Shown piece after piece: positions 27,774 through 63,757 of a stretch of 64,000 nt of DNA. Under the pieces are notes generated by a model that saw only the letters and a program-made list of their open reading frames with translations, had not been told where the DNA came from and ran no database searches. This DNA is from Tubulanus polymorphus (lineage: Eukaryota; Animalia; Nemertea). The stretch is taken from assembly GCF_964204645.1 (NCBI RefSeq), contig NW_027437436.1, forward strand, positions 1 to 64,000, in the 5' to 3' direction. Within the stretch, counting starts at the first letter, position 1; the number at the start of each line of letters is the position of its first letter. The translations under genes and the position numbers were made by a program.

Positions 27774-30508
27774 CTAAGAAAACAATAAATGTACACTCAC
27801 TCTTTTATTGAGTTCGTTAAGTTCTGATTCGATGCAGTTTTTCATCCTAGCTCGGTCGCTGGCTCGGCAACGGAAATACAGGTGAGATAGGTGCGGAAGG
27901 TTTTTGATTAATTCGACGATTGATTTGACAAATGAATCGATATCGTCCTGTGTATCAAACCTCTCCTTGTAAACGTTGAACTGTAACATACGAAGCGATG
28001 AGACGTTTTTAAGTAGTCGTAAGATGGTCCGATGCTGTTCGGTGCTTTTAAGTGAGCTTGTGATACCGATATTTTTCAGCTGATTTACCGCATCTGATGA
28101 TAGATACCGAACAAGTGCTTGGTAATCAGCTTCTAACTTTACATCTACTGATAAAACCGTCAGCTGCGGCAGGTGAGGCAGAATGCGGCTTTTTTCTAGA
28201 CTAGATCTGTGACAAGAAAGAAGCTTTAGTTCCGACATTGAAGCGATACAATCACTGATTTTTGTCGATTGATCTTTGGTTAGTTGAATCAGATCAAGAT
28301 GAATTGTTTCGATCTTTGAAGATCGTAAGGCACTGTTAAAATCTTCCAATTCTGTATCGGTCAAATCTTCATCTAATATTCTCCCATAAGGCTTGGATTT
28401 TTCTCCGCCTCGAAGATGAATTTCTTTCAAGCGCGGAATTATGTTTGTCAGCCCTCTATATATATTTTCACTGGGAGGCACGCGGATAAACAAATGTTTT
28501 AGGGATGGATTAGATTTGTGAATATTGCCAAAGATTTTTGCACTAGCCTCCGTTTTGATATAGAGAATTTCCTCTTTATATTGTGTGGATGGATCACGAG
28601 TGATCGACTGAACGTCATCTTCAGATTCAATCAATCGACTCGTTTTTATCCATTCACAATCGAGTTTCTTGTAACCGATACGGAATTCTCCTTTTAATAA
28701 GTCCACAAGCCAGTTCGTACTGTTGCTTTTCTGACACAATACCAAGTACGGATCACTGTCTATTGAACAACACCTCTCTCGTGCGATTATCATACCCTGA
28801 AGACGAGTGTTACTCGCTATGGCTGTTTCTAATGCGCAGTATTCGCCAGTGCCGGGTTTCAGTTCGTTACTCATATCTCTTAGATAAACTACCTCGATCG
28901 GGCATTGTTTGTGTTCGAGTATTTTTGCGAGTACTTTTATTTGCACGTCGCTAGTTATATTTACAATCAACATTTTTCCGGTGTAGTGAAATATTTCGCT
29001 AATGGCGTCATCCGGACAGTCGGCTTCATTCAGGTAGACTGATAACCGATCAGATAACCAATAGCTTTCAGATTTAAGTTCGATGTAGCGTTCATATTCG
29101 GGAAGGGCCGCTATCTGGACATTTTGTTGATCGTTTATTATGTCATCGAAACCGTCCTCGTCTATTGTGACTGCTTTTAAATTCTCATCAATTAAAGTTC
29201 TGAAAAGTTCACCGAAGGCGTTATCATGCTTGAGACGATACAGCAGCCCTACCATGAATCTCGGGTATAATTCACCATATTTTTTCAGTTCGTCCGGTAG
29301 TTGTTCAAACGCACATTTTTTCCAGGGTATTTCACCACTGTTGTTGAATTGTACAACCGAGTGAAACGCCGCCAGAAATTCGTGCACAGATTTGAGTATG
29401 AATCTTAGCTGGACGAAGCGGTCTGAGTTCATTCCCGGCGACACCTCTTCGCATGTCAAAGCCGTCATCTTCGATTCGTCGAGTTTGAGATGATTTTCAC
29501 TGAAGCTGTTTTGACCCTTGATGAGCGTCTCATACGCGACTTGACAGATTTCTTTAAGTGCTTCTGAATTTCCGATATCGCGGAAAAAACATTCCGACGA
29601 CAAGTCGAAGCCCTCACGTTTACTGATCAGAAAACACGTCAAATCGATGTAGATATCGGTGAGTTTTGATGGTATCGTAATTTCTTTCTTGTCCATATAC
29701 AGAGAACAAAACATATGTAGTATCAACGGGTTGAAGTAGGTACTTTGAAATAAAGGTGGCGCCGCGACTTTAAACATGTTGAATAGCTGATCTGCATCGC
29801 GCTCGGGGAATTTTCTCTTCATTATATCGAAGACTCCTTCCTCTCTGAAGCCGTATATCGATACAACGGTGAATTTGGAATCAGTGGCGATCATGCTTCC
29901 CCTGGACTCACGTGTTGTTATGACGATGTGCGCTTTCAGTAATTCATTGGTCGCGCGTACGATTTCTTTCTTCGCTTTATAGTTTTTCAACTCGTCGAAG
30001 CCGTCTAGCAAAAATATCGCTTTTTCTGCATTTTCCTGTACAAATCTCATAAAACCATCATACGGCGCGTCTTTTTTTACTACTTGACTTAAAAGATTAT
30101 CGTAAATGTACGTATAAATACACGCGTTATCAGCGGGCAGTTCATTTAACGGTATATAGAATAACATGGGAAATCTTTCTAGAAACGGTGATCGTTCCCA
30201 TGACAACACTTGATTTATCACCTGTGTAGTTTTACCAATACCAGGATCACCTACGAGGCATATATGCTTCTTTTCGGGCTGTTCATAAGTGAAAAGCTTC
30301 TCGAAATCATCGGGTAAAATCACTGACTGCTCCTCACTTTCTTCATTTCCCCTCGGGTTTCGTTTTTGCGGCCGAATTCTCGCGTGTTCTGTGGTGAAGA
30401 TTTCGTTGAAATTGACGAATTCATCGCTCCACCAAACCTCTTTATAATTTTTATCATCAATCAGTTGTTTATACGTTTCTTTCAGATACTTCTGAACTTG
30501 AGTAACAT
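27774..30508 (-). CDS. NLR immune receptor, NACHT-WH-LRR-like terminal exon
   Basis: Walker A GDPGIGKT, Walker B IFLLDGFDEL, sensor IVITTR, NPLILHMFC, WH motif F..KSVHEFLAA, and a C-terminus with LxxLxL repeats. The frame is open upstream of the listed ORF to an acceptor TTTTTACAG at 30509. Confidence 0.92.
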
Positions 30509-33500
30509 CTGTAAAAAAAGAAATCAGTTTCGGACTTTTGAATGGTGGCTAACTTGGGCCACAAGATTTCCTATTTATTAAAAGAAAATTGTTTTGAAAA
30601 AGATTTTCTGTAGCACCTGCTAAAAACAACTGAGCTGATTTTAACAACCAATGAAAAAATCTTCTTTTATGACCTAAAATCTACTAGTTGATTTAAGTAT
30701 CATCTGAAATCAATGTTTTGGTTGAGAAAACAATATTTTAATACATGTAGTAGAAAACACGCAAATCAAAATCTTCATCATGATTAAATGATTTTATTTA
30801 CATGTTTCAATTGATTTTGACTAATCTTTAATCGACTTAATTCTAAACACAACTAGAATGAGGCAAAGCCATTGAAATTCACCGCCACATGTGAACTTAT
30901 GGGGTTTGGGGTAAATCCATTGGACATATCGAGACCACATGTACACACACACATGTGTCAAAGGTGTCAAAGATGACAAAAAGATGCGATTAGTAACTGG
31001 AAAGAAATTTTATGAGAGAAAAAATATGTCAAAAAGGACTTAATTTTGGTCAGTGATAACTGACATTTTAACGAGAACGAAATCTTTGAAAAATTGAATA
31101 TGGGAACTTTTGTCCTAACAAATTAATGTTCATAATCTTAATACATTTATAGAATTACATTACATAACAACTAAAACTATGGGTGACCCGGCAAATTGAG
31201 AGTCTGGGTTTCATTGGACAGAAGCTCCCATGTTTATGCAAATTTGAGGCCTGTGCCGTTTACTGACGAAATAAAGTTTATCGATTGATTAATAAATTCA
31301 CGATAGGATTGCTTTAAGTGGGCAGGCAAGCTTACATCTTCACTCAGATAAATCGTTGTTACGCGCGACCTGCACCTTGGCGCGCGTTATCTATAACTGA
31401 TATGTATATACACGCATAGCATCTAGAGTAATAAGGCAAAATACTGCCTACGCAACTGTACACTAATAATCAAGGTCGTTAATGCAAACGTCAATAAAAT
31501 GACTTCAATTGATAATGATAAAACAATTATTTCAGTCGTGTCAACATCAGACTCATATTAAAAATTTAGATGCTATCAGGTGATCGGTATCATCAGTGAA
31601 TCAGCCGTGTGGCGAACACATAAGTAAATATCCTCAATTTCAAACCAGAATTCCGTCATATACTTTGATGCAACGTTATCTTATGCACGGGATTTCAAAA
31701 CTAGATGAATCATTGAACACATCGCACACAATAAATCGTTATATCATACGCCTTGAGTATCAGTATTCGCGCCAGAATTGATGAATATGAACCTCTTCAA
31801 TTGTGCCACCATTTTGTTACGCGAAATATCGCACCTGCTGATCCACCTCATTTAAATATTCAACAAATGCTATGACAAAGCGTCGGATCTTGGCGATATA
31901 AAGTTCTTTCGACACAAATAGCAATGAATTTTCACATGTGTAATTTTGGACAGCTAAAGATGCTGCATAAAAAAATTGCTCAAATAAATCGAATGACACT
32001 TTTTGGTTAATTTCTCAATAAATATGAAACCCACGGCTTTCAACTTTGCGCACCATCAAGAAAAACGAATTACGAAATATATTTTTTCTTATTCCGTTCG
32101 ATTCGCCAATTAGTAGTGAAATCAGAGGCTACTGAAATTGCGTTTGAGTGTGCTAAAAATAGCTTTGAGCGTAGTGTATTAAGCATACGAATGATAATCG
32201 ATCGGCCAGACCGTTGACATATGCTCGCAAACGGGAGCCAAAAATGTTGATCATGCATTTAACTGTTCAGTAGAGATTAGAACCACAAATACCATGCTCA
32301 TGAATTAAACCGGAAGAAAATGAATCTAAATTTCATTTAAATCTTGTGGATTAACTTTATCCCGAACTGTTTAATTTTGGTCCTGGATTAACCCAAAACG
32401 CAACTACTGTATAATTTACTTACTCGACTCCTCTATCAGGAAACCTCTCGTTTTTAGTTCGCCTGAAAAGGAAATGATATTCATTAATCAGGAATATCAT
32501 GATAACACTAAAAAATCAACTTCAAACTTCAAAAATGAAGCTTCAACAGATATCATTGACTGTTCCTATACGTAGCGGCCCACATGGTATGAGTATTTAT
32601 GGTATACTAGGCAAAAATGCCAAATTTTTCGAAGTAGGTGGAAAATCCTTCCACCTTAGAATGTAGTGCAAGGATATCATGATCATACTAAGAGGGGCGC
32701 ATCCAGGTTGAGCGCAAGGTCACCTCATATCACAAGATGCTTACTTACTCGCCGAGTAGATTTTGAAAATCTAGGTAAAGCTTACGTTTTTATGCAATTT
32801 AAGTGCATATTACTGCTTAGGGATGTAGACCTTTGTCATAGATCAATGTCGGGTAAATGTTTTCACATGTGATTTTCAAAAGGGCACTTGATCGGGAAAT
32901 AATGGATCCGCCCCTGACTAAATATTGAACATTGCTACAAATTAACAGTTCATATACTTTAATCATTCTGAAAGTTACCTGCGCAATACATATATATATA
33001 TATCAAACTGGCTTGAATTTAAAACATTTCATATTAGAACTTCATTACTTCTAACTTCTCGCATCGTAATTTTCTCTAGTAGTCATTTGTATTGGTTCTC
33101 ATATGGGGTACTCATGAGAGGTACTCATGAAATGTACTCATGAGAGGTACTCATGAGGGATACAAATGATAGGTACTCACCAACACTATAACTCCTCACT
33201 GTTTCAATGCATTCACCCAAATATTCGTCAACTGAAATGAAAATAAATAGTTAAGTAAATATTTAAGTTGATACAAAATGTGACCAAAGTGTGATAACTT
33301 TAAACACATAAGTTTAACACTAAAAACATAGCACTGGATCAAGGCAGAGGACAGATACCTCTGAAGATCTGATTTTAATTGATGCTATATTTTTGTTTTA
33401 TTTTAATCTTTTTCATATTCACCTATATGCTGGAGTTCAGTTGTATCTGTTACACTGTCAATTTCATCTCCTATTCAAATAGAACAAACAATTATTTCAA

Positions 33501-34486: not shown

Positions 34487-36720
34487 CTGAAACAGAATAA
34501 ACACCATAGATTACTGCAGAGAGAGAGAGCGAAATATGTTCTACTTTCCTAATTCAATCAACAATTTAGTCGATTTAGGCCTTTTTAATGGCTGGCTTTA
34601 CGGGGTAAACATTTCAAAATATCATTCCAGAGGAGGAAATAAGAATTTTAAGAAAATTCCCTTAGTGAGACTAAATTCATGAACTGGGAACTGTCAAGAG
34701 GGCTGAATATACAAATGTCCAAATAAAATATGCATGGAAAGTTCGAATTCTGCACACTGCGATCAAAAAGGAACCACGCGGTTTTCAATTTGTTCATCAT
34801 TCAAGCCATGATTCTCATTCGGCGGAGGTGAAAGGCATTTCCTTGCTAATTTTTTCACTCAATTTATACACGAACGGGAACAAAAAATTATTTGTTTATT
34901 CTTCCAATTTATGGAGGCGGTTCCCATAAACCTAGCTATTAAAAAAGAGAATAGATATTGTCTGTTTATAAAAGGCCCGTAATATTGAAGATCAATGAGG
35001 AAAATTTGTTACTCTGACATTTCAAGTAGTATACTTTTATCCATCTTCAGAGATTTATTCAGGTTCGAAGTCACTACTACTGATATTCCCCAAAACTGTG
35101 AAACAAGCTGCAGTTCACCCTGTGGGCCATTTTCATGAAATTATGAAGCATTTCAGTTTTAAGTGTTCTGAACAGCTAAGCTGGATTAAGAGCTGCATAA
35201 GAACCACTACTTGTGTGAGGGCGCACCATCTCGTAAATAGTTGAGACTACTATAGCAAACCAATATTATTCATTTTTACAAAACGTACTTTCTGGATTTG
35301 GCAGTTTCATTTTTGGAATAACTATGTCATGGTAGACATAGATTTGATCTGCATAAATATAGCTTTTAAAATATCAGAGTTACATTTTTGAAAAATAACA
35401 TTTTATCAATCATTTTATATCTGAGATTATTTTCTTGTTTCTCTTTGTACCATTTATGACTGCCAAGCCTAGTTACTCTGGTCTGAGAAGCTTTGTTCTC
35501 ATAGTATCTTTAAGTCAACAAACCACAACATTTGCCTAGATACTTAATGGTGACACTAATTACAAAGTTTGTTTTCTTGGCAATCTGGCATCTATCCGTT
35601 GTCAGAGCCCAAGTACCTGGATCCTCCAATCAGATGAATCTTTGCTAGATTGGGTTTGTAGGTGGAGCCAGAGTCATCAAGGTCCAGCTCAGGCCTAGCT
35701 GGGTTATTCTGACTTTGGATTTCATCAAATAAACCCAATCTGCAATTAAAGATTCACTCTCGTATTTTCATTGGATTTCCAGGTAAGATATTTAGTACAC
35801 TTTGTTATTCATAGTGTTTCCATTTATTACAACTTAGCTTAGGCCTAAAACAATAAAGTATAATTTGTCTGCTATATTCTCGCCTCCCCCGAGTGAAGTA
35901 TTCTACCGATCCTTATGGATCTCGATTATTAAAGAAATCGAATGTAAATTAGAATTACAAATAACTGAAATTAGGTTTTGCTTTAAACCATGCAAGACGC
36001 ATATATTTGAATTACAAACTAAAACTTAAGCTGGCAATTTGAGTACTCTGTATATATATACATATATATATTTATATAATTAGTCAACAAGGTGTTATGA
36101 CGATATGATATATAATCTCAGCAATTATTAGTATAATCATGTATATTCAAATGTATGAACTATGACTTTTAATATCTTATTATTCTGACTTTGGATTTCA
36201 TCAAATAAACCCAATCTGCAATTAAAGATTCACTCTTGTATTTTCATTGGATTTTCAGGAATTTCAGGATCACAAAACATAATTATAACCGCGGTGGTTC
36301 ATCCCAAAAACCTCCGCATTAAACTACTTTCAGTCTTAAATGTCATGACGAGAGAAACCCATAATATTATATAGATCGAAAACAACAGCCCTTGTTTTTT
36401 TTTCTTGGCGCCGTTTCTTTCATCTGATTTTGTCCTAATAACATCCCTTCAGGAGAGGTTCCTAATGTGAGCTCTGGTGTGACACTCACTACTATTAAAC
36501 CTTATTTCAAATAATTCCACCTGGAACATTAGGAAACAACAAGCGGTTATTTTATATCTGCATTGTGGGGTTTTCTCTGCATGACATAATCATAATATGA
36601 GTTTAACGTGGAAGTTGATACTTACTCGCTATTTCATCTTTAGCTGAAAAACGGCAAACAACAATAACTAACAAATATAAATTAGTTAAGTAGATCTAAA
36701 CAGGTAAATTTATACAGTTC

Positions 36721-36792
36721 AGTAATTAGAAGATGGCGTTTTCATACCAGAGTACTAGAGTACTAGACACCACTCATCACCACAAGTAATTT
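36721..36792 (+). repeat. Left TIR of element 2
   Basis: Exact reverse complement of 53275-53346; extends imperfectly to 93 bp. Confidence 0.97.
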
Positions 36793-39700
36793 TTTTTCCT
36801 AATAAATGGGGGAGAATGAACACCAGCCAGAAAACAATAATGTTAATGAAAATCAATATCATTGTCCATATTGTAAAAAATACATTGATAAGTCTAATAA
36901 ATCTAAACATGAAAAATCTGCAAATCATATAAAAAATGTAATACATTTTGAAACCCCAGAAAATTCCAATGAAAGAAAGGAACGATTAGATGATATGAAT
37001 GTGGATGAAATAAAATGTGAAGTTTGTTATGAATTTATAGTAAAAAGGAATTATAAAAGACATATCAAATCACAAAAACACCATCAAAATTTGAGTAATG
37101 ATGTTTTAGGAAAAGATTATTTCGATGATAAACCTCAAAAAGTAAAAAAACCAACTTCAAAAACTAAATCCATTTCAAATAAACCTTACATGGAAAATGT
37201 TAGAAATTATATTGATTCACTAGAAATAAAAGATACAATTGAAATTTTAGAAACATTACATAGTAAAATTGGTTCTGCGGCTATTATATTTAGATTCTTT
37301 AAAGGAACAAGAATAGAAGATTATAGTAAATTTAATGAAATAATAGAAAAAATACTAGATTTGATAACAGATGTTGAATATCCAAAAATTAGTATCTCTG
37401 GGAAAGTAAGTTTTATAAAGTCAGAAGATAAAATGGATTATAATATTCAAACACTCTCTGAAGAAATAATTTCAAAAACGCAAATAAAAGAGAAGTTAGA
37501 AAAAATATTTAATGAATTTAAACGTCATATTGAAGAGAGATATTTTGAGGGTTCTGGTTTAACATTGAATGGAATTATATTTTTAGATTTAAATGTTTAT
37601 AATACTTAAAGGAATAAAACATCAAAAAGTAAAACAACGTTTAAAATGACTCAAACTTTACAACAGAAAAGGATATTAAAGCATCAAGTTATATTAAATT
37701 ACCATTTACAACAAAAGCAGTAATAAATGTTCAAAATGAATATAATAAATGTTTTCTATGGTCAATTATTAGTTGCTTACACCCAACAGAAGATATTACG
37801 CATAGTTTTAGAATAACAAATTACCGGAAATATGAAACATTATATAAAATTGATCAATATCCAGTAACTATAAAAATGATACCCAAAATAGAAAAATTAA
37901 TAAGTTAAAAATAAATGTATTCGAATTAATGCAATTACCAAACACAAAAGGTGAAAATATTAAAGATTATACATTGGAAGCTTTATATTTAACAGAATAT
38001 TATGATGATGAAAATGCTATAGATTTGTTATATTACAAAAAAGATGAAAATGAACATTATATGTGGTTAAAACAAATTGATTTATTCTTTAGAACAGAAA
38101 GTGATTTTAACAGTCATAAGATTTATCTATGTAGAAAATGTTTATCTAAATTTAGAACTGAGAATGCGTTACTAAAATATAAAGAATTATGTGATAATAA
38201 AGATTTTTGCAAATTAATAATGCCAACAGAAAAAGATTATAAATTGAAATTTACTAATCATAAATTTAAAAATATTGTTCCATTTGTAATTTATGGGGAT
38301 TTTGAATCGTTGAATAAAGAATTAACTGATCAAGATAGAAAAGAAATATATAACAAAAAGCAATTATTAAAATCAATGGATAAAGGAAATGAATTAAATG
38401 AAGACACAAGACCACCAATTATAAATACAATTAAAAAAGTTCATCAAAGAGCTGCTGCTTATGGAATTTATATAAAATCAAAGTATCCTGAATTATATGA
38501 AAGTCAATATATTTCTTTTAGAGGTGAAGATGTAGTTAATGATTTTTGTAACAAAATGATTGAATTAGAAAGTGATTTTGCAAAATTATTAAACAAAAAT
38601 AAAAGAATAGTTATGACAAAAGAAGATGAAATTGATTTTAATTATGCAACTCATTGTTGTTATTGTGAAAAACGTTTTTATTCATTTGATAAAAAAGTTA
38701 GAGATCATAATCATTAAATTCAAAATATCGTGGGGCTGCTCATGAAGATTGTAATTTACAAGCTAAAAAAGTAAATTTCGTTCCAATATTATTTCATAAT
38801 TTATCCGGCTATGATACCCATCTATTTATAAAACAATTATCAAGGAAATTGGGCGCAATTAATCAAGAAATAGAAGAATATAATGCTATGAATGGTGTAA
38901 ATGTAAGAACATATGATTTTAAACTATTAGCTAAAACATCTGAAAATTATATTTCATTTCAATTTGGTTGCATTAGATTTTTAGATTCTTATAGATTTCT
39001 AGCAAGTTCATTAGATAATTTATTAAAAAGTTTAGTTGATAATGATTTTGTTATAACTCGATATCATTATCCAAATGAACAAGATTCTAAATTATTGAGA
39101 TATAAAGGTGCAATTCCTTATTCATTTTATAAAACACACAATGATTTTAATGTAACAGAATTATTAAAAGATCAATTTTATGATCAATTAAAAGAGGAGT
39201 ATGTGAAAGATGAAGTGTTTAACAGAACATTAAATATTTGGAACCATTTTAAGATGAAAAATCATTGCGAATTAGTTGATTTATATTTATATTTATAAAA
39301 TCAGATGTTATGATATTGGCTGACATATTTGAAAAATTTAGAGAAGTTAATTTGAATCATTTTAATGTTGATCCTTGTTATTGCTACTCTAGTCCTGGTT
39401 TAACCTGGCAATGTGGTTTAAAATACACAAATGTAGAATTAGATTTATTAAAAGAACCAGTTATGGTTTTATTATTTTAAAAATCAATTAGAGGTGGAAT
39501 TAGTGGTGTTATGGGAGATATATATTTTAAAGCAAATGATGAATATAAATTATAATATATTGACGCCAATAATTTATATGGTTGGGCAATGATGCAACCT
39601 CAACCATATAAAAGTTTTATATTAACAGAAGTTGAAAATGATGATAAAACTGATTGGGAAAGCGCAATTGCGAGTTTAAAAGATGAAGCACCAATTGGTT

Positions 39701-39933
39701 ATTTCTTTGTAGTTGATTTAGAATATCCTGAAAATATAAAGTTTAAAACAAGAAACTTACCTTATTGCCCAGAACATTTAACCGTAGATGATAGTTATTC
39801 AAGTGAATACCAGAAGAAAATAAAACCGAAAGATCATGTTTTTACAGAAAAATTAATACTTACTCAAATTAATAAATACAATTATATTGTTCATTATAGA
39901 ATGTTAAAATTCTATCTAAAACAAGGAATGAAA

Positions 39934-40545
39934 CTCTTTCCATGCGACTTCCCTAAAAACCAGATCCTGAGATTTTGCGAACTTTTTTCAAAAAATATTG
40001 GGTTCTCAAACTTCTAGACGGTCTAATACGCTTCCCTACACTAAAATATGATGATTCAGCTTGTTTCTGATGATCTAGCTATTCTGGGGTCGTTAGGGGC
40101 CCCCAAAATGTCAAAAAAAAAAATTTGACCTACTTTCGGGTCATTCGGGTACCCCTACCCCTAACTGCAGCTTCATATTCTCTCTATATATCTTCATTAT
40201 ATCCACTGCGTCATGTATAGACACCGTATACCAGCCGCTGTGTCTATTTATAAAGCTTTCAATTTTGCCCTACTTTGTTTACACAACTTGACCTCAATTC
40301 ACCGATAATGACTTTCGTGACCTATATAGATTTTATTCATACACCCGCCAGCGAACTCGAACAAAAACAAGTCCCTGGGGTTGCCAGGACTACCAGGCAT
40401 ACATACAAGCCGTATAAGCTTTATACATTGCCATTTAGACAGTAAGGGGATAAGTAGGTCAAACACCTGTGACGTGGCGCCACACCGCGCAAAAACAAAG
40501 CGTTCTGGAGACTGTGTCGTCCGGTCACAGTTAGCATGGAAAGAG
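39934..40545. mobile_element. MITE-like insertion interrupting pPolB
   Basis: About 610 bp, GC-richer than its surroundings, bounded by CTCTTTCCATGC / GCATGGAAAGAG inverted repeats. Removing 39936-40543 restores QGMKLEKVHRYIEF. Confidence 0.8.
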
Positions 40546-40964
40546 AGAAAGTACATAGATATATTGAATTTAATCAATCGAAGTGGTTAGAAAAATATAT
40601 AGATTTCAATACTCAACAGAGAACCATATCAAAAACAGATTTTGAAAAAGATTTCTTCAAATTAATGAATAATAGTTTTTATGGTAAAACATGTGAAAAT
40701 ATTAGAAATAGAAATGATATTGAATTAGTAAATAATTCTGAAAGATTAAGACATTTACAATCAAGTCCTAGACATTTAGGAAATAAAAGATTTGAAGATT
40801 ATTTAACAGCAGTTAAATTAAAAAGAACGTCAATGAAATTTGATAAACCTATATTCATTGGTTCAACTGTTTTAGAAGTATCAAAATTATTAATGTATGA
40901 TTTTTATTATAATGTTTTACAACCTTTTTTTGGGGAAAAGCATATTGAAATATTATATTTTGAT

Positions 40965-42029
40965 TCTGTAACAGCTGACGCCCCAATATTATTAAAATGT
41001 AATAATAAAATATTGATAAGAAGAATTTCAGAAATAATTCCAAAACAAAATGAATGTTATATTTCATATGGTGAAAAAGAATTAATACAAATAAATGGAT
41101 TAATGGATGTTTGGACAAGAAATGGATGGAAAAAATTAAAGAATATTATTAGGCATAAAACAAATAAGAAAATCTATAGAGTTAGAACTAAATTAGGGTT
41201 TGTAGATGTTACAGAAGATCATAGTTTAATTAAACGAAATGGCGATGAAATAAAACCAACTGATATAAAAATTGGAGATGAATTATTACATAAAAGATTT
41301 TTCCAAAGAATGAATCATATGTCATTTGATGAAATTATTGATAATTTTTATAACATAGAACCCGAAACATTAGAAGAAAAAGAATATTTTTTTAAAGGAT
41401 TTTTCATGGGAGATGGTTCAGCAGGTGTGTATAATTATGTTAATCGCAATCAATATTGCTGGTATTTATGCAATCAAGATTTGAAATTATTAGCAAGAAT
41501 TAAGAAATTCTGTGAAGAAGTTTATTCACATAAAACATTTAGAATCGTGGATCATATGAAATCAACAGCAGTTTATAGAATACTTGTAAATAACCATAAA
41601 GATTTTGCTACAAAATATAATGACGAATTCTATATCCATACAATAGTTAAAAGTAATACTTCAACTAAAGAAAAGATAGTTCCAGATTATGTATTAAATG
41701 CAAAATATAAATTAAGAAAATGGCTCTTCATTGGATTCTATGCTGCAGATGGTTCAAAAAAATATACGAGATCTCCAGTAATAACATTTGCGCAAAAAGG
41801 AAAAGTTGCTATATCAGGATTGAATATATTATGCAGTTCATTAGGATTTAATATGAATATAGAATTAATTAAATCTAAACCAAATTGTTTTAATTTAAGG
41901 CATACAGAAAAAGATTTAACTGAAGAAGTTATAGATTTATTTGAAATATATAACCCATCAGATTATGTTTATGATTTATCAACTGAAGATGGCACATTCA
42001 ACTGTGGATTTCCATTAATAGCCAAAAAT
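40965..42029 (+). mobile_element. Intein with LAGLIDADG homing endonuclease (355 aa) in pPolB motif C
   Basis: N-extein ..LYFD; block A SVTADAPILL; block B VDVTEDHSL; LAGLIDADG helices FFKGFFMGDGS and LFIGFYAADGS; block F YVYDLSTEDGTF; C-terminus IAKN; +1 Thr (TDA). Confidence 0.95.
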
Positions 42030-42481
42030 ACGGACGCCTACATACTAAAAATCAAGACAAATGATATAACAAAAGACTTAAAAACATTAAAACATCATTT
42101 TGATTTTAGCAATTATCCCAAAGATCATGAACTATTTAGCAATGATAATAAAAAGATTCCTAGTAAGTTTAAAGATGAATTAGAGGGTGATGAAATGATT
42201 GAATTTGTTGGGATAAGAAGTAAAATGTATAGTTACAGAACAAAAGATCATGAAGCTAAAAAGTTAAAAGGAATAACAAAACATGTGGTTGATAAACATA
42301 TAGAATTTCAAGATTATATAAAGTGTTTATATAACTCAATTGTAATGAAACATAAAATGAATTGTTTAAGATCAGAAGATCACGAGATGTACATTAATGA
42401 AGTTGAAAAAACTAGTTTGAATCCATTTGATGATAAAAGGCATATTTTAGATGATGGTATAAAAACATTACCTTATGGCCA

Positions 42482-43810
42482 TTAAAACATAAAATCAATA
42501 TCATCATACTCGAAATCACTATTGGCTTCTTCATTTTCATTTAATTGTTCTTGTATAATTTGTTTCGGTTCTTCCATTTCATTTTTCTCATTTAAATATA
42601 GTTCTATCTTGCGCCACATTTCATCTCGCTCTCTTTGTTTCTTTTTGTTTGTTAATTCATCAAATGGAATTATAATATCTATGTTTAAATTATTTACAAT
42701 CTTATTTAAAAAGAATTCATAATTTATTGAATCTGTTATTCTATTTTCCAAATGATACATTAATATTTGTTTAAATATTTTTTTTTTATTTTCCATATCT
42801 TCTTCTGTTAATTTAGGTTTTTCATAATAATCGTTAAATAATGAATATAAATACATTTTCTTTTGTTTTGTGTTAAATGTTGACGGAATAATTGTTTTTA
42901 TAATATCTTTTTTAGTTATTTCACCATTTTTATTTTCTATTATTTTCATTTTTTCAAGCCATTGCATATATTCTGGTGTATGATCTTCTATAGAAAATAT
43001 TTTAAAAATTTCATCTAGATAATTTAATTTTGGCTCTATGAGAAAATTTCTAGTTTTTTCTTCACCCCATAAATTCTTTTGCCATCCACAATCAACACAA
43101 AATAACACAGTACCTTCTTGTCTTAAGGTCGCATAACTACATTGTGGACATTTTCGTTTATAATTTATTGGTAGTAGATCTTCATTAAGCTCTTGGTATT
43201 TTCTTACGTTTTCTTTATGTTTTATTGTTCTATTATGTAGATTTGAATTACTTGTTGTAATAATCAATTTACAATATTTACAATAATATGTTTTTCTTGT
43301 TAATTCATTATATTGTTTTTCTAACTTTTCAACTGTTTCTTTATTATCTGGTAACGTTTTCTCATATTTTATTTTTTCTAATAAATTATTTTTTCTTTCA
43401 TTGAATTCAGTTTCAAATTTATTAGAAATTTTATCTATATGTACTTTACGAAATTGATGATTCTCCCAATCTTCTATATTTTCAGGGCTATATTTTATTC
43501 GACAAGGCTCGCAGAAATGATCTTTCATATTATCCTTATCATAGAATAAGAAAGGTCTTTTCCAAATAATTTCAGGTTCAACTTCAACAGAATTACTATT
43601 ACTTTCATTACTATCAACATTAGCCGTTGCGCCATTAATTTTACACTTCTCTGAATGTTTTTTAACATAATTTCTTGAGAATAATTTATTACATTTTGGG
43701 CAGTTTAGTTTAGGGGGTTTATAATTTTCTTCATGTTTTTTCATATGTCGAGCCATATTACTTTTTCTTAGAAGTTCACCACAAATTTCGCATGGTATCT
43801 TCTCATCCAT
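42482..43810 (-). CDS. Multi-zinc-finger protein (element 2)
   Basis: CEIC..HMKKH, CPKC..HSEKC, CEPC..HQFRKVH, CKYC..HNRTIKH, plus a CPQC..CVDC ribbon; intact 442 aa. Confidence 0.8.
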   Translation of the reverse strand: MDEKIPCEICGELLRKSNMARHMKKHEENYKPPKLNCPKCNKLFSRNYVKKHSEKCKINGATANVDSNESNSNSVEVEPEIIWKRPFLFYDKDNMKDHFCEPCRIKYSPENIEDWENHQFRKVHIDKISNKFETEFNERKNNLLEKIKYEKTLPDNKETVEKLEKQYNELTRKTYYCKYCKLIITTSNSNLHNRTIKHKENVRKYQELNEDLLPINYKRKCPQCSYATLRQEGTVLFCVDCGWQKNLWGEEKTRNFLIEPKLNYLDEIFKIFSIEDHTPEYMQWLEKMKIIENKNGEITKKDIIKTIIPSTFNTKQKKMYLYSLFNDYYEKPKLTEEDMENKKKIFKQILMYHLENRITDSINYEFFLNKIVNNLNIDIIIPFDELTNKKKQRERDEMWRKIELYLNEKNEMEEPKQIIQEQLNENEEANSDFEYDDIDFMF

Positions 43811-49013: not shown

Positions 49014-50261
49014 ATGAGTGGGAGTTATATAAGTCCTTCTAAGATTTCTAGAATATCTAATGCTATTAAAGCAGAAAGATCACATCATATAATTACTCAT
49101 AATCCTTCAAATATTAATCCCGATGAAACTTTATATGTTAGAATTCCTCGATTAACACAAAATACTTTTTATGTTCCAAATAGTATTTATCTATCAGCTG
49201 ATATAAAAGTAACTGGTCATGATAATAATTATGTTGTTGATAATGTTGGGAGATATTTGATTAAAAAATTAACTATAAAGATTGGTCCAGAAACAGTTTT
49301 CTCATTAGATGATTATAATTTATTTATGCATTATGAAGATTTATAGTTAACTAAAGAAAATAGAAATAATATGATATTTCAGGGTATTCAATCGGAAAAC
49401 CATAATAAATTAAGATCAGGAGCTAATGACGCAATAGTAACTCGTGCCACAGATAATATGATTAAAAAGATTTATGGAAGCAAATATGAAATTCCATTAG
49501 ACTTTGAATTGATAAATAATAATGCACCTTTATATAAATATTTAATTCAAGAAGATATTATATTTGAGATAACATTTGCTCCTGTAAATGAAATTGTATT
49601 ATCTAGCTTTGTTAAAGATATGGGTTATAAATTATCAAATATATGTTTAGAATATGACACAGTTACTAATGAAAATATTGCTAGCACAATTCAAACTCAA
49701 TACAATCAAGGATTTTCATTATTATATGATTATATTGATAAATTAAAAACTGTAACTATTAATGCAAATGATGAAATAATTAATGAGAATATTAACTTCC
49801 CAAGAAGATCTATTAAAGGTATATTAATATTTTTTACCATTGCAACATATTCTAATGGCGCAATAAAGGTAGATAATTATTATAATCCTGAAATAACAAA
49901 AGTAGAAATAACTATCGAAGGAATAGCATATAAAATATTTTGTCAAGGAATGAGAATGATAGATCAATGGCCAGAAATTAGAAAACATTTTATGAATGAA
50001 AAAGTAAAATCATTTGAAAATTGTAACATTAATCAAATTGATTATTATACCGGCAATAAATATGCATTATGGTTAGATTTAAGAACAACAGAGGATAATT
50101 CATTACATGGTTCTGGGAAAAAACTACAGAACACTAAAGATGGAATACAATTATTCATGGCGAAGAAAACAGGAGACAAAAATTTCAAAATGCAGATTTA
50201 TATTATATCTGACGCACAATTAAATATTGTAAATTCACAATTAGATAGTATTCAATATTAG
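49014..50261 (+). pseudogene. Major capsid protein (double jelly-roll), one in-frame stop
   Basis: About 415 codons in one frame with TAG at 49344-49346; beta-rich (NPSNINPDETLYVRIP, IIFEITFA, PRRSIKGIL, WLDLR..LHGSG); lies next to INT and ATPase. Confidence 0.75.
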
Positions 50262-50291: not shown

Positions 50292-51419
50292 ATGGGTGGT
50301 AAAAAAACTCCTAATACTATAAAACAATATTTAAGAAATTTATATTACAACCCCGAGAGTTCGGTTGCTTATTCTTCTACCAAAAATATATGGCGTCAAG
50401 TAAAACAAGATAAATTAGATAAGACAATCCCACAAAATTTAGTTAAATATAAAGATATAAATGAATTTATGTTAGAACAACCAGCATACACAACACATAA
50501 AAAAATTGTTAGAAAATATAAAACTCGTTAAACTATGGTAAGTTATGTAGATCAACAGTGGCAAGGAGATTTAATTGATATGAAAAATGTTAAGAAAGAT
50601 AATGATGATTATTGGTGGTTATTGAATATAATTGATATTTTTAGTCGTTATGTATGGAGTTTCCCACTTTATAGAAAAGATGCTGTACAAACATCAAATG
50701 TTTTAAGAAAATTTCTTTCGGATGATAAACTAAAACCAGAAAAAATACAATTTGATGATGGAAAAGAGTTTGATAATTCACTTGTTCATGAACTCTTAGA
50801 TAATCATAATATTAAATATTTTTCAACAAAATCGGATAAAAAAGCAGCAGTTGTTGAACGATTTAATAGAACATTAAGAACAAGAATGTGGAAATATTTT
50901 ACAGCAAATAATACTTTTAAATGGATTGATGTTTTACCAAAATTGATAGAAGGATATAATAATTCCTATCATTCTTCTATTGGAATGAAACCTATTGATG
51001 CTAAAAAACCTGAAAATGCTGAAATTGTTTGGAATAATTTATATGGAGCATTTCTTGTAGATGATTTTGGTGAACCTAAATTTAAAGTTGGTCAAAATGT
51101 TAGAATTTCTAAGTATAAAAAGATATTTGACAAAGGATACGATCGAAATTTTACTAGGGAAATATATAAAATAAAAAAGGTAATAACAACAAAACCACAT
51201 GTCTATAAATTAGAAGATTTAGATGGTGAAGAAGTTGATGGCTACTTTTACGAAGAAGAATTAAGTTTAACTACTGAAAATCTACAACAAGAATATAAAA
51301 TTGAAAAAGTATTAAAAACAAAAACTATTAAAAGAAAAAAATATTCTTTAGTAAAATGGGTTGGATGGCCAGATAAATTCAATGAATGGATATTATCAAG
51401 TAAAATTAAAAATATATAA
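50292..51419 (+). pseudogene. Retroviral-like (rve) integrase with C-terminal chromodomain, one in-frame stop
   Basis: WQGDLID, IDIFSRY, QFDDGKEF, VVERFNRTL (DDE triad); IEKVL..LVKWVGW..EW chromodomain; TAA at 50529-50531. Confidence 0.93.
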
Positions 51420-52028
51420 ATGAATAAGGAATTATTTATATTTGAGCCTCATAATATGTTAATTTCTGGTGTAACAAATTGTGGAAAAACTTATTTTATA
51501 TTAAATTTATTAGGAACTGTTTATAAAAACTATTTTGATAATATAGTATTATTTTGTCCAACATATGAATTTAATCAAACTTATGATAGTAATATTACTA
51601 GAAATAATAAATTTATTATATTAGATCCTAAAACAGTAAAAGAAAATTTAGATAATTGTATTAAAATAGCAATAGATATTTATAAAGGATCAAATACATT
51701 ATTCATTATAGATGATTGTGCAAATTTACATGATTCAAAAATTAGAGAAAGTGAGTTATGTTATTTAGCTTTTTCTGGTAGACATTTTGGGATAACAACA
51801 TGGGTTTTAAATCAAAAATATAATTCAATTGTTAAAGACTTTAGAGAAAACATTAGATTTCTAGTTTTATTCTACAATAAAGATAGAAAATCGATGAAAA
51901 ATGCACTTGAGGAAAATGATATTATTCCACATGATTTACATAATGAATATATGGATAAGTTGAAAAATATTAAAAGATCAAAATTACTATTTAGATTACA
52001 ACACCCATTTAAATATGAATTTATTTAA
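51420..52028 (+). CDS. A32/FtsK-like genome-packaging ATPase
   Basis: Walker A GVTNCGKT, Walker B FIIDD, GRHFGIT..NQ, REN. Confidence 0.92.
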   Translation: MNKELFIFEPHNMLISGVTNCGKTYFILNLLGTVYKNYFDNIVLFCPTYEFNQTYDSNITRNNKFIILDPKTVKENLDNCIKIAIDIYKGSNTLFIIDDCANLHDSKIRESELCYLAFSGRHFGITTWVLNQKYNSIVKDFRENIRFLVLFYNKDRKSMKNALEENDIIPHDLHNEYMDKLKNIKRSKLLFRLQHPFKYEFI

Positions 52029-52934: not shown

Positions 52935-53261
52935 TTAATCAACAATTTCTAAATCATGATGGCCATCTTCATTTTTTCCATGATAGATTATTTTAAATCC
53001 TTCTAAATCTTTTAATTCCTCTGTACTCAATGAAAACCATTTATCAGGTAAAAATACTTTAAATTCTCGTGATGTACTAACATTACAGTAGCTTAAATTA
53101 GCTGATACTTTCTCTCCATATTTAGTTTTTATCTTTTCTAATTTCAATATTTTATGTTCAATTTCTTTTGTAACATCAATTAACTTTTTTATTTCAAATT
53201 GTTTTTTTGCTGGTTTTATTCTGTTATTTATTGTTGCTAAGAATGCTTTTCTATCTCCCAT
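52935..53261 (-). CDS. Small terminal protein (108 aa) whose start lies in the extended right TIR
   Basis: Intact ORF; homologous to 5656-5990. Confidence 0.75.
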   Translation of the reverse strand: MGDRKAFLATINNRIKPAKKQFEIKKLIDVTKEIEHKILKLEKIKTKYGEKVSANLSYCNVSTSREFKVFLPDKWFSLSTEELKDLEGFKIIYHGKNEDGHHDLEIVD

Positions 53262-53274
53262 TTATAAGGAAAAC

Positions 53275-53346
53275 AAATTACTTGTGGTGATGAGTGGTGT
53301 CTAGTACTCTAGTACTCTGGTATGAAAACGCCATCTTCTAATTACT
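53275..53346 (-). repeat. Right TIR of element 2
   Basis: Exact reverse complement of 36721-36792, followed by the TSD CAGTTC. Confidence 0.97.
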
Positions 53347-53464
53347 CAGTTCACTTAAACAGTGTCTAAATAATTCTATATTACTCCTAGTTTTGATCTG
53401 AATCAAAAGTGGAATCAGAATTGGTTTATTTGCCCTTTGAAGTTCAACCTTGAATTCTACTCAC

Positions 53465-57629: not shown

Positions 57630-58035
57630 AGTAATAGGGGTAATAGGCTTTCATACCAAAGGTCGAACGGTCGAGCCCATTAAAAAACAAAATATTAAAA
57701 GTAATTAAAAAACTATAATATATTTTCATAACCGCGTGCATTTTATATCAAAACTAAATATTTATTATAAGATATCAATAATATAAAAAGCATATTGTAT
57801 TAAATCAATTGGTCGCTCCACTTCGCTACCGCTCCGCTCCGCGACCAATTGATTTAATTACAATACACAAATTCAAATAATCAAATATATTCAAATGATA
57901 ATAATTATTCTATTATTCAACTGAAATGCACGCGGTTATGAAAATATATTATAGTTTTTTAATTACTTTTAATATATGTTATTAATGAACTCGATCATTA
58001 AACCTTTGATATGAAAGCCTATTACCCCTATTACT
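57630..58035. repeat. 406-bp terminal imperfect palindrome of element 3
   Basis: Outer arms about 57630-57742 / 57924-58035; inner 18-bp stem 57799-57816 / 57841-57858. Confidence 0.92.
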
Positions 58036-58117
58036 CTTAAAATATTCATATATATATGAATAACATTTAAATCATTGAACTTCTAAAATCAATTTTAATA
58101 AAAAATATAGCATTAAA

Positions 58118-58354
58118 ATGGAAGCAAATAAGTACTACTGCCCAACATGTAATATCGATATAGATAAATCTCAAAAAGCAAGACACAATAAAACTATAAC
58201 ACATTTAGAGAATAAATTGAAACTAGAATATTTACAGTTATATTCAGAACAGTTAACAAAGGGAAAGAAATTCATAGAATTATGGAATAATGATCCAAAT
58301 AATAAACAATATGTTGAGGATACGATGTTTATACTAGAACATGATTCTATTTGA
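58118..58354 (+). pseudogene. Chimeric ORF: pPolB-type first zinc finger fused to an HNH-gene tail
   Basis: The N-terminal half matches 6039 onward (MEANK.YYCPT..SQKARHNKT); the C-terminal half LQLYSEQL..KKFIELWN matches the end of 60457-60720. Confidence 0.7.
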
Positions 58355-58885
58355 GCCTATATACATTCAATGTATAGAGCTATAGAATAAATCTATAAAT
58401 TCACAGCTGTTACAGTTGTTACTATAACGACGAGACATTATGACTCATAATATTACAAACTGTGCTGGAACTCTGAATAGAGATGACACATCATAATCAG
58501 AAACGTGTAGAATATTCTAGAAAGGCGCGCCGGAACTAGATGATGTGGTATAATCAACGACGTGTCATTCTAGAAATCGCCCCGGAAATGGACATACGCT
58601 GTAATATTGTGCTCAGGATATTCTATCTTTCGAAACGAAATTAGGAGTTTATAGTTTACAATTATAAATCTAAATGTAAGTACTGTTTGTTGTAGTTATT
58701 AAGGCTATTAAATATGAAACCTTTAAGTGCTTTTGACAACTACAACTTTATACAGTTAATTCTATTTTACGTTAGATAGATAATAACTTGAACTATAATA
58801 AGTTATAATAATTAGAAACGATAGACTTGAAAATATTTATATCATTTAATATCGCGGTTCCTGTTCTACCGCTGATATCTTTTAG

Positions 58886-59644
58886 TTGAATAAAATGTCG
58901 TGTGTATCAAGAAGTACTCTTGATTCTCAGAGGACAACCGAAATGGAAGATGAACCAACCGAAATGGAAGATGAACCAACCGAAATGGAAGATGAACCAA
59001 CCGAAATGGGTGTTGAAGTAAAAGAATCTTTCGATATAGAAGATGAAACGTTAGAAGAAGTTAAAAAACATTTATATTACCATCAAGAAATGACATTAAT
59101 TTTAGAAAAAATTATAGAAAACCAGCAATCAAGCGTAACATCATTACCAAAAAAGCCAACAACCAATGTAGAAATATTGTTAAGACTAAAAGGAACAAAA
59201 ATTAAAAAGAAAATGAGCGGAAATGAGTTAAATGAGTTTTTTAAATCAAAATTATCAATTGAAAAAGATGTAAGTTTTAAAGAAATAGAAGGTATAACAT
59301 CATTTAATGAAATAACTGTTTTATTGAAAAAAAAATATAGAACCTTGTTATTCAAAAAAGCAAAGCATTTATGGGATTATATCATTTTCGGGGATTGTTT
59401 AAATAGGGGATTTTTAATGTTTAATAAACAAACTGCGGGGATTCCTTGGGCTTCTTGGGTTAAAAAATATATAGGTATCAGTGTTGGGCATGAAAGAAAA
59501 TTAAGGAGCGTAGGGAGATTAATTACATATAAAAGATTCAAATTATTAAGTTTGTCATTTAGTGAAGTAATCAGATATATGCCAGAAATTGAAAAAATGC
59601 TTGTCAATGATCCAGAAATTGAAAAGTTCTGGTTGGAATTATAA
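58886..59644 (+). CDS. Hypothetical cargo protein with (TEMEDEP)x3 repeat
   Basis: Intact ORF of about 250 aa; 21-bp tandem repeat at about 58936-59008; helical C-terminal domain. Confidence 0.65.
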   Translation: MNKMSCVSRSTLDSQRTTEMEDEPTEMEDEPTEMEDEPTEMGVEVKESFDIEDETLEEVKKHLYYHQEMTLILEKIIENQQSSVTSLPKKPTTNVEILLRLKGTKIKKKMSGNELNEFFKSKLSIEKDVSFKEIEGITSFNEITVLLKKKYRTLLFKKAKHLWDYIIFGDCLNRGFLMFNKQTAGIPWASWVKKYIGISVGHERKLRSVGRLITYKRFKLLSLSFSEVIRYMPEIEKMLVNDPEIEKFWLEL

Positions 59645-59945
59645 ATCAAATTATGTACAACGACTGAACAACTTGTATAATGTATTGTGTAAATCTGTTT
59701 GGTGAATTTTTATGTTCGGTCGTTTCTATTTCTAGAATGAATATATAATTATGATTAGCGCATGCGCATTGATCAAAAGCGCGCACGAATGCGCGCTTTT
59801 GCCCAGTGGTATTATTTAGATATCAGGAAATCGAAACTGACTTATCAAAAGCAGCGAGGAATGAAAAAGGATGACGTTGGTTGGTTGAAGAAATGGAAGA
59901 GGATTATAAAATGTTAATCAATTTTAATAAAAATATATATTATAA

Positions 59946-60720
59946 ATGGAGGAACAATCACAAGCTATAAATATAAACAATGATGGTGTAATAAATATAT
60001 GCTATAAGAAATGTAATAAGTGTGAATTGAATAAATCATTAACAGAATTTCATAATCATAAAAAAACTAAAGATGGTAAAAGTTGTTATTGCAAAACTTG
60101 TTATAAACTATATAATAAACAATATCAAGCAAATAATCCAAATTATTCAACACAATATTATATGGATAATATTGAAAAATTCAAAGTTAGAAATAAACAA
60201 TGGAGAGAAAATCACTCAGATTATATAACAGAATATATGAGAGAATGGAGGGATAATAATAGAGAATATTATAAAGCGTATCAAAATAATTATCAAAATG
60301 AAAAATATCAAACAGATTTTAATTACAAATTGAAAAAATGTTTAAGATCTAAAGTATCAAAATTATTCAGTAAAGAAAACCACTCAGTTACACTAACACA
60401 TTTATTGGATTGTTCAGATAAATTTTTTAAATCATGATATAGAATATAATGATAAAATGAATATAAATAATTATGGCAATTATTTTCAAAAAGACCATGT
60501 TTTACCAGTTTCAAAATTTAACATGAATGATGAATACAATAAAAAGTTAATTTGGAATTGGAAGAATTTAAGACCTCTTGAAAAGAAGGAAAATATGATT
60601 AAACATGACAAACTAGATTTACAGTTATATTTAGAACAGTTAATAAAAGTAAAGAAATTTATTGAATTATGGAATTCAACACATAATGAACAATACGTTG
60701 AGTCTTTAATGAGTGGTTAA
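59946..60720 (+). pseudogene. HNH-type endonuclease with N-terminal zinc finger, one in-frame stop
   Basis: CNKC..EF..KDG..YCKTC, a Tyr-rich helix, DHVLPVSKF..WKNLRPL..EN; TGA at 60435-60437 in frame. Confidence 0.8.
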
Positions 60721-60944
60721 AGAATAATATATCTCAAATAAAATATAATAAAAATTACATACCTTCAACTATCTACCATTTCTATTATATTTTTAATATT
60801 TTCTTTTCAAAAGAGAATACTTTATATCACAAATAAAAAATACTTAAAAAACAATAACTAATACTAGAATTCTTTAACTTTAACTATCTAGTATCATTTG
60901 AAGAATACTTATAATATTTTTCTTATTAAATTTCTCTAATATAA

Positions 60945-61547
60945 ATGTCAAAGAAATCTAATAAGAATAGTATTGATATTGAAAAAACATTCGATGATTT
61001 GGGTATAAGTGATAATAAAGATACAGTTGTAACTAATTCTATTCAAGTTAATAACAATATAGATTATGAATACTACTTATATTGTAAGCATCATCTTGAA
61101 TTATTAATTGCTGGCGGGAAATCTAAGGACTTCTTAGGAAAAATAATAACTTTTCAAGAACTAGACTCTATGAAACCCGATAAAGTAATAAAATATTTTA
61201 AGATTTATGAAGAGTCAAGATTAGCTAGAATAAATGATTCTATTTCAGATGGTATTGTCAAATGTTATTCAAAATTATGTAACCAGTTAATACCAATTGA
61301 TGATGAAAATAAATTATATAATGATTTGAAAAATGATTATTTAGTTATGACTGAATTACAAAAATGGGTTGGATATGCTTCATTTCAATTAGGATCGGTT
61401 ATGACGTTGATTTCTACTGGAGTTATAACATTTTCGAACATCAAACCTATGGAATATAAATCAGGTAAGAACGAAACAGATATACTACAACAAAACATCG
61501 AAACAGAAAATGAATCAGAACAAAAATTAACTAAAATAAATGAGTGA
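60945..61547 (+). CDS. Conserved hypothetical protein (element 3)
   Basis: Intact 200 aa; paralogue at 52236-52773. Confidence 0.75.
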   Translation: MSKKSNKNSIDIEKTFDDLGISDNKDTVVTNSIQVNNNIDYEYYLYCKHHLELLIAGGKSKDFLGKIITFQELDSMKPDKVIKYFKIYEESRLARINDSISDGIVKCYSKLCNQLIPIDDENKLYNDLKNDYLVMTELQKWVGYASFQLGSVMTLISTGVITFSNIKPMEYKSGKNETDILQQNIETENESEQKLTKINE

Positions 61548-61899
61548 TGGAGTTAAGAAAAAGGCTAGATCCGAGAAACAAATTAAATGGGCAAGAGAAT
61601 TAGGTAAAAGATCATCAGAATTAAAAAAAGCTAAGAAAAAGAAATTAACTGATATAAATGAATCTGATATTGATTCAAATAATAATCCATCTAATTCTTC
61701 TAATGCTGGAAGTAATTATAAATTATATATTACAATTGGATTAGTAACAGTTATTATATTATCCGGTGTAATATATAAATCAAAATTCAAATCTGATGAT
61801 AAAGATGATTCCAATGACAATCGGAAACATATTATACCAGAAAATAAGTCAAATCATAAAGTCATTGAAAATAAATCTAAAATATTATTAATGGATTAA
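61540..61899 (+). CDS. Basic protein with one TM segment (element 3)
   Basis: 119 aa; Lys-rich N-terminus; LYITIGLVTVIILSGVIY. Confidence 0.7.
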   Translation: MSDGVKKKARSEKQIKWARELGKRSSELKKAKKKKLTDINESDIDSNNNPSNSSNAGSNYKLYITIGLVTVIILSGVIYKSKFKSDDKDDSNDNRKHIIPENKSNHKVIENKSKILLMD

Positions 61900-61902
61900 A
61901 AT

Positions 61903-62991: not shown

Positions 62992-63598
62992 AGATTTATT
63001 TATATTTGAACCACATAATATGTTAATAACTGGAGTTACAAACTGCGGTAAAACACACTTCATATTAGACTTGTTAGAAACTATTTATAAAAATCATTTT
63101 GATAATATAATATTATTCTGTCCTACTTATGAAATGAATGAAACGTATAATAGAGATATAGTTTTTAAAGATAAAAAGTTTATTATATTAAATTCTAAAA
63201 CAGTAAAAGAAAATTTAGATAATTGTATAAAAATTGCATTAGATATTTATAAAGGATCTAATACATTATTTATTATTGATGATTGCGCAAATTTACATGA
63301 TTCTAAAATTAGAGAAAGTGAGTTATGTTATTTAGCTTTCTCTGGTAGACATTTTGGGATAACAACTTGGGTTTTAAATCAGAAATATAATTCAATTGTG
63401 AAAGATTTTAGAGAGAATATAAGATTTCTAGTTTTATTCTACAACAAAGATAGAAAATCTATGCAACAATCATTGGAAGAAAATCAAATTATACCTACTG
63501 AATTACATGATGAATATATGAATAAATTAAAAAATAATAAAGGTTCAAAATTACTTATGAGATTACAATTTCCATATGAATATAAATTTATAAAATAA
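62984..63598 (+). CDS. A32/FtsK-like packaging ATPase, intact
   Basis: GVTNCGKT, FIIDD, GRH motifs. Confidence 0.93.
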   Translation: MNKDLFIFEPHNMLITGVTNCGKTHFILDLLETIYKNHFDNIILFCPTYEMNETYNRDIVFKDKKFIILNSKTVKENLDNCIKIALDIYKGSNTLFIIDDCANLHDSKIRESELCYLAFSGRHFGITTWVLNQKYNSIVKDFRENIRFLVLFYNKDRKSMQQSLEENQIIPTELHDEYMNKLKNNKGSKLLMRLQFPYEYKFIK

Positions 63599-63619
63599 CT
63601 ATTTGTATACCTATGTATT

Positions 63620-63685
63620 AGATACCCTAATACCTGATACCCTAATACCTGATACCCTAATACCTGATACCCTATTAGATACCTT
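63620..63685. repeat. 15-bp tandem repeat downstream of the ATPase
   Basis: (GATACCCTAATACCT)x3+. Confidence 0.85.
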
Positions 63686-63757
63686 AAATAATTTAATCCC
63701 CCTTTTTTATTTACTATTATTTTATACAATTTTCAACCTTTATTATTCGAGTTTTAG

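Follow-up and report, generated by a model that had tools for sequence, protein, structure and literature searches.

Do inteins live in animal genomes? Reviews state that metazoan genomes lack them (PMC8529194, in part; works so marked are cited from the portion of their text that was available), and the original prediction for this locus rightly took that view as its background. The stretch of Tubulanus polymorphus DNA analysed here (64 kb, hereinafter the window) raises the question directly: an insertion splits the active-site motif C of a protein-primed DNA polymerase (pPolB) encoded by an integrated element. The explanation that we consider probable is that a full-size LAGLIDADG intein occupies the active-site motif of a Polinton pPolB, very likely in an animal genome; that it belongs to a Polinton-wide clade with, likely, one entry from an RNA-primed viral PolB; and that it is likely kept by homing between copies. 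The features of the window are collected in Table 1.

Table 1. Features of the 64-kb window, with positions, strand and basis or remarks.
Feature	Position	Strand	Basis or remarks
PLAT-lipoxygenase gene, intron-split, at least five collinear exon pieces	957-17807	-	2 of 5 pieces weak (E 0.02-0.03)
NACHT-LRR (NLR-like) gene, 6 kb left of the element	27774-30548	-	NACHT E 9e-17
Left terminal inverted repeat, starts AG	36721-36813	+	target duplication CAGTTC at 36715-36720
Upstream pPolB, five frame segments, at least one further stop	36806-39936	+	
Insertion of ~0.6 kb, MITE-like, short inverted ends, breaks pPolB	39933-40546		GC 42% (richer)
pPolB segment right before the intein, motif B to YFD of motif C	40547-40964	+	PF03175 E 5e-5; 71-90% to empty relatives
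Full-size intein, 355 aa, Ser1 to Asn355, pol-c site in pPolB motif C	40965-42029	+	translation, Pfam/TIGR profiles, model
N-terminal splicing (Hint) region, aa 1-110, Ser1 and block B T83-E-D-H86	40965-41294	+	profile; beta-strand region in model
Two-motif LAGLIDADG endonuclease region, ~aa 136-313	41370-41903	+	D150 and D262 end both motif helices
C-terminal splicing region, block F Asp337, Lys354-Asn355	41916-42029	+	without block F His or penultimate His
pPolB C-extein, +1 Thr, TD of motif C to stop	42030-42485	+	
Probable major capsid protein, split by stop	49014-50261	+	weak Capsid_N match, E 0.005
Retroviral-type integrase with chromodomain, split by stop	50292-51419	+	rve E 2e-10, Chromo E 2e-4
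A32-type packaging ATPase	51420-52028	+	Pox_A32 E 6e-13
Right terminal inverted repeat, ends CT	53254-53346	-	target duplication CAGTTC at 53347-53352

The translation of 40965-42029 comprises 355 aa with no stop and is flanked by EILYFD and TDAYIL. Its boundaries are exact, because the four closest polymerase relatives (C-extein 75-83% identical) have an empty site that reads uninterrupted YFD/TDS (here and below, the slash marks the insertion point). The following motifs can be located: (i) TEDH of block B at aa 83-86; (ii) GFFMGDG at aa 145; (iii) GFYAADG at aa 257; and (iv) VYDLST of block F at aa 335. The Pfam Intein_splicing match (E 2e-8) reaches 34.5 bits, slightly below the curated cut-off of 35.8; LAGLIDADG_3 (E 8e-6) and TIGR01445 (intein_Nterm) are matched above their cut-offs. 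An AlphaFold2 model built on a 30-row alignment (pLDDT 92, pTM 0.91) displays a Hint fold and a two-domain monomeric endonuclease fold, in which helices 136-150 and 248-262 carry the LAGLIDADG motifs; both LAGLIDADG aspartates are conserved in at least 90% of the 30 aligned rows. The best solved folds for this model in Foldseek are intein homing endonucleases (TliVMA, 1e-18; PI-PkoII; PhoVMA; PI-PfuI; PI-SceI), the matches to intein structures span the full length, and the I-DmoI fold is also matched. The best named viral fold matches are the PolB inteins of a phycodnavirus, Pandoravirus, Marseillevirus and Megavirus, the latter at 27% identity.

As for the splicing residues, those of class 1 inteins are present (Ser1, T83, H86, D337, Asn355 and Thr+1), with Lys354 instead of His as the penultimate residue. 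A penultimate His is usual, not universal, in class 1 inteins. Among 181 extracted family members, the termini are HN in 103, KN in 64 and SN in 14, and 63 of the 181 miss both C-terminal histidines, as does the intein studied here. By a coarse pattern match, block F His is absent in all 63 Lys-Asn-ending inteins scored, a covariation suggestive of a C-terminal chemistry that dispenses with either usual histidine. Taken together, the stop-free frame, the Hint and LAGLIDADG profile matches and the exact empty alleles confirm what had been proposed, namely, a real full-size intein, predicted to splice, with a two-motif LAGLIDADG endonuclease. A hedgehog-type Hint domain or a bacterial intein-like domain is ruled out by the endonuclease insert, the terminal Asn, the +1 Thr and those same empty alleles.

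The insertion between D and T of motif C, together with the nearest similarity to pol-c inteins, identifies a pol-c allele at the level of sequence. The claim that giant-virus PolB inteins use this site holds as well: the 351-aa intein of the Mimivirus PolB, R322, lies at YGD/TDS (PMC549080, in part). With giant-virus (Mimivirus R322) and archaeal pol-c PolB inteins, as far as the available text describes them, the present one shares the site (YFD/TDA here), the size, the Ser1, Asn and Thr+1 residues, the block B Thr-His pair and the two-motif LAGLIDADG. Unlike those, it resides in a protein-primed polymerase with ~20% background identity to those PolBs, and in a multicopy element inserted into what is very likely an animal genome. 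For a pol-c-type homing intein, both the protein and the genome that house it are of a new kind.

The element itself is 16.6 kb long; its 93-bp terminal inverted repeats are identical at 90 of 93 bases, the 6-bp target duplication is exact, and GC is 22-26% within it versus 33-38% outside. With a pPolB, a retroviral-type integrase, an A32 ATPase, AG...CT repeats and a 6-bp duplication, it is a Polinton/Maverick. No adenain-type protease was matched among the 25 element ORFs scanned. The original prediction was right as to an integrated Polinton and animal-type host genes. The NACHT-LRR gene (27774-30548) is one long frame of 924 codons from stop to stop, and the clusters nearest to it come without exception from animals (Mollusca, Arthropoda, Porifera, Echinodermata, Chordata). 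The best solved matches of the lipoxygenase are allene oxide synthase-lipoxygenase and arachidonate 5-lipoxygenase, and a frame-keeping GT-AG phase-2 intron separates its first two exon pieces. To judge from these genes, the window is very likely a piece of animal chromosome.

Two further elements accompany the Polinton described. A second Polinton-like element (57630-64000) runs off the window end; its integrase and ATPase are 77% identical (DNA) to those of the first, and it opens with a 406-bp fold-back whose arms begin AGTAATAGGG. An AT-rich decayed element (5505-11100) lies within a lipoxygenase intron, with a shorter fold-back start like that at 57630 and N-terminal pPolB remnants at 6039-6823; its ORFs 8905-10257 and 10610-11128 have no Pfam match. 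Rfam gave no match anywhere in the 64-kb window.

The original prediction passed over the fact that the pPolB of this copy is broken upstream of the intein. Four frame changes, at least one stop and the 0.6-kb insertion interrupt this part; pPolB has at least five breaks and, in consequence, the copy in the window is a fossil. The domains of the upstream part we take to be a zinc finger, an HNH/endonuclease VII-type insert, an exonuclease and motif A. The open frame that holds the intein (40473-42482) covers the C-terminal part of pPolB alone. At the observed break density, the chance of an unbroken 1065-bp stretch is ~0.26; since intactness is expected by chance about once in four, the open frame is no sign of selection here. 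Host co-option of this copy's intein is unsupported on the same count (p ~0.26). Part of the MITE-like insertion at 39933-40546 is deeply covered in one contig set and, hence, it probably represents a host repeat family.

In a raw-read run from a separate study with the same species label, of which ~12% underlies the depths given, read depth is 191 in the intein bin versus 23 and 26 in the flanks. This ~8-fold excess implies that the family is multicopy and that several copies carry the intein. The neighbouring extein has a depth of ~285-320, and the lower value over the intein is compatible with some empty copies or with divergence. The family is also represented by 224 raw reads without the 0.6-kb insertion that breaks this copy. 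Runs with a small share, from a marine metagenome and from another organism, were left out of the evidence. No intein-skipping joint occurs among the 15 joints listed (there are 186 others), and none of the matches listed, read or contig, bridges an element end by 31 letters on each side; one does so by 30.

A survey of relatives for occupied and empty alleles, which the original prediction had called for, yielded both in the clusters of P0002 and P0005. In the P0002 cluster (136 members), the 15 members listed comprise 7 occupied alleles, 5 empty ones and 3 without coverage of the site. Within one cluster, occupied and empty alleles that are 97-99% identical to each other occur on numerous separate long contigs, which reach up to 1 Mb. 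When the empty P0133 is compared with the residues common to all 7 occupied alleles, 12 of 1191 differ, and 8 of these lie within 9 residues of the site (binomial p ~1e-12); the occupied-type flank in the P0002 family resembles the sister families P0003 and P0004. From the sequences, such differences would fit either (i) flank conversion by an invading intein; or (ii) the survival of cleavage-resistant empty alleles, and either would imply an active nuclease. In the P0005 cluster (121 members), 3 of 746 extein residues distinguish the empty P0141 from the occupied P0138. None of 50 C-extein matches was occupied, a figure that gives no frequency as the search missed known occupied relatives (e.g., P0001). 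The hosts of these related pPolBs are presumably animals.

Mobility is also apparent at a larger scale. P0006 is a pPolB of another group, probably VSR-type by its motif; its exteins show 21% identity, that is, background, and its intein 45%, values that show a jump of the intein between polymerase groups. Inside the main pPolB group, intein/extein identities are 63/59, 48/44-47 and 46/41%. Intein identity therefore tracks extein identity, which points to an old invasion followed by long co-residence; vertical descent with loss would give it too. None of the full-length clade members (337-355 aa) has lost any of the endonuclease region or either aspartate. On a 56-row extein tree with 8 occupied rows, occupancy changes at least 6 times, only slightly below the shuffled mean of 7.7.

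Where did the intein come from? A longer-protein search with the intein was considered for its best 120 of 299 matches: 9 of the 13 best are pPolBs whose intein occupies the same position (39-62%), and the remaining matches listed are nearly all RNA-primed PolBs or topoisomerases. A profile-free scan of 1.84 billion representatives returned 2050 matches. In a 76-row tree (16 pPolB, 55 best-scoring others and 5 topoisomerase rows, near-duplicates and lower-scoring rows excluded), the pPolB inteins form one clade of 16 rows with an SH-aLRT of 100. In a careful 45-row tree, the 8 pPolB inteins are again one clade (100/100), joined at 96/93 to ten PolB inteins that include the giant-virus-bin PolB P0015 (locus L002, 99.8%) and T4-like phage PolBs (PHROG 262). 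The rows of the intein tree were picked by similarity to the query, and the root is formed by topoisomerase inteins. The identity of the intein to the nearest giant-virus-bin and phage PolB inteins is 40-43%, and YGD precedes the intein in 98 of 103 related viral or metagenome loci. Both searches and trees hence agree with the earlier claim that the nearest relatives outside Polintons are RNA-primed viral PolBs.

The original prediction went further and had an NCLDV intein cross into this element. A single crossing into this particular element does not stand, given an old and widespread Polinton clade whose divergence tracks that of the polymerases; an NCLDV donor is likely rather than established, the sister clade including T4-like phage PolBs besides those of giant viruses. 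Separate intein and extein trees, also proposed there, resolved the pPolB inteins as one clade with repeated changes of occupancy. None of 200 bootstrap trees has a branch that separates the RNA-primed PolB inteins from all others; their monophyly is nonetheless not rejected by the AU test (p 0.264). In consequence, that Polintons acquired the intein from an RNA-primed viral PolB is likely rather than proven, and the donor could have been something other than a giant virus. The co-infection that the original prediction saw as a requirement is conjectural, and the first jump into Polintons may have occurred in a protist host.

Intein-bearing pPolBs were also sought elsewhere. Intein scans of viral and metagenome contigs, based on a few short patterns, gave 117 loci, none with pPolB exteins; four occupied pPolBs, used as queries in similar pattern scans of viral contigs, gave no match. 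The phage collection returned two weak matches (<30%), the prokaryote genomes five loci with pPolB-like pieces in bins and no intein match, and the ESM Atlas, searched with P0002, leads that were all <0.9. P0011 and L118-L121 are Polinton polymerases in bacterial genome bins, probably through host contamination; P0011, which is occupied, is filed in the bin of a clam symbiont.

Other readings of these data must be weighed against homing between integrated copies. The intein could be real and yet have its homing confined to settings other than animal germ lines (a phase as free virus, or protist hosts), being in animal chromosomes a passenger of integrated copies, seldom or never expressed. The broken copy in the window agrees with this idea. 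Nevertheless, it is unlikely in view of the nearly identical occupied and empty alleles on many separate long contigs of a single cluster, and of the 224 reads from the same organism that lack the insertion breaking this copy; the viral contigs, under admittedly weak pattern searches, also yielded no intein-bearing pPolB from a free virus. An intein ancestral to this pPolB group that has since then only disappeared, through repeated exact losses or through recombination with lineages devoid of it, and whose endonuclease no longer homes, would account for intein identities that follow those of the exteins within the group, and the tree count cannot separate gain from loss. We regard it as quite unlikely, however. 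Under the homing-cycle model, inactive inteins are expected to shrink to mini-inteins, but the endonuclease region and both aspartates are whole in every full-length member; furthermore, P0006 reveals a jump, and the differences between occupied and empty alleles are concentrated at the site.

That the contig is not animal, or that the element was mis-joined from protist or symbiont DNA, is very improbable, even if the relative P0011 is filed in a bacterial symbiont bin: the 6-bp duplication is exact at both element ends, the lipoxygenase is intron-split and has the solved matches given above, the clusters nearest to the NLR come from five animal phyla, and flanks and element are both covered by the raw reads of a separate study with the same species label.

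If homing between Polinton copies is indeed what keeps the intein, its cycle would be as follows. In an intact copy, class 1 splicing would begin with an acyl shift at Ser1, helped by Thr83 and His86, continue with transfer to the +1 Thr and end with cyclisation of Asn355, thereby rebuilding motif C; because the intein splits that motif, splicing would be obligatory in such a copy. The released endonuclease would then cut empty YxD/TD sites in sister copies, and repair templated by the occupied copy would transfer the intein along with some flank. In multicopy families, targets would be continuously available, and this would account for the retention of the nuclease region in all full-length members. 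To a wider proposal we give an even chance: that inteins live in animal germ-line genomes, where one clade would ride Polinton polymerases in several animal lineages, would need to splice in animal cells if the element is to replicate, and would drive homing among integrated copies, with cleavage-resistant empty alleles as a counter-move.

Several known systems come close to this one. Endogenous giant-virus PolB inteins have been described in the nuclear genomes of Klebsormidium, Tetrabaena and a labyrinthulomycete (PMC10710043, in part). Like the present case, those are viral polymerase inteins on eukaryotic nuclear scaffolds; unlike them, here occupied and empty alleles segregate within transposon families. 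The available main text of that work does not mention animals, Polintons or Mavericks. HNH and VSR nuclease inserts occur in Polinton pPolB (PMC10748475; PMC11161782; both in part), and one sentence of PMC11161782 speculates that pPolB nuclease inserts stem from "intein invasions"; the word "intein" has 0 occurrences in the available text of PMC10748475. Those inserts are likewise nuclease domains within Polinton pPolB, but they have no Hint splicing domain reported in these sources and belong to other nuclease families and positions; the element studied here has an HNH-type insert plus the intein. The intein of Chilo iridescent virus, a glutamine-type one from a free iridovirus (as cited in PMC549080, in part), belongs to a DNA virus that infects an animal, but not to a pPolB or a host genome. 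In a eukaryote-wide survey, viral inteins were found only in giant-virus families and unclassified viruses (PMC5784728, in part).

No report of an intein in a Polinton or in any protein-primed polymerase was found in the available full-text literature (including PMC12220804, PMC13768754, PMC3671162, PMC5718144, 10.1101/299784 and PMC7544198, all in part), supplements, subscription journals, InBase and Repbase being beyond its scope; in the available text of the Maverick, adintovirus and coral polintovirus papers, "intein" occurs 0 times. The Polinton intein clade is apparently undescribed so far. It ends the metazoan absence stated in reviews (PMC8529194, in part), at least for integrated elements. 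Where a family has occupied and empty copies by the dozen, the stages of the homing cycle (invasion, conversion of the flanks, resistance and loss) can be counted per genome. The clade is, in addition, a source of inteins and LAGLIDADG nucleases that are probably already functional in animal cells. Finally, contacts at the level of DNA, be they of Polintons with large DNA viruses or among distant Polinton groups, can be traced through the intein.

Related inteins are found in other proteins too. The T4-like phage PolBs P0018, P0165 and P0168 carry an intein of a giant-virus PolB subclade; the inteins of P0015 and P0018 are 53% identical and their exteins 24-28%, which amounts to a phage/giant-virus exchange. 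A related intein is present in P0103, named as a DNA polymerase delta of Chloropicon primus. Six type II topoisomerases (P0075, P0097, P0098, P0008, P0106 and P0112) have related inteins at a DQD/TDG-like site that mimics the polymerase motif.
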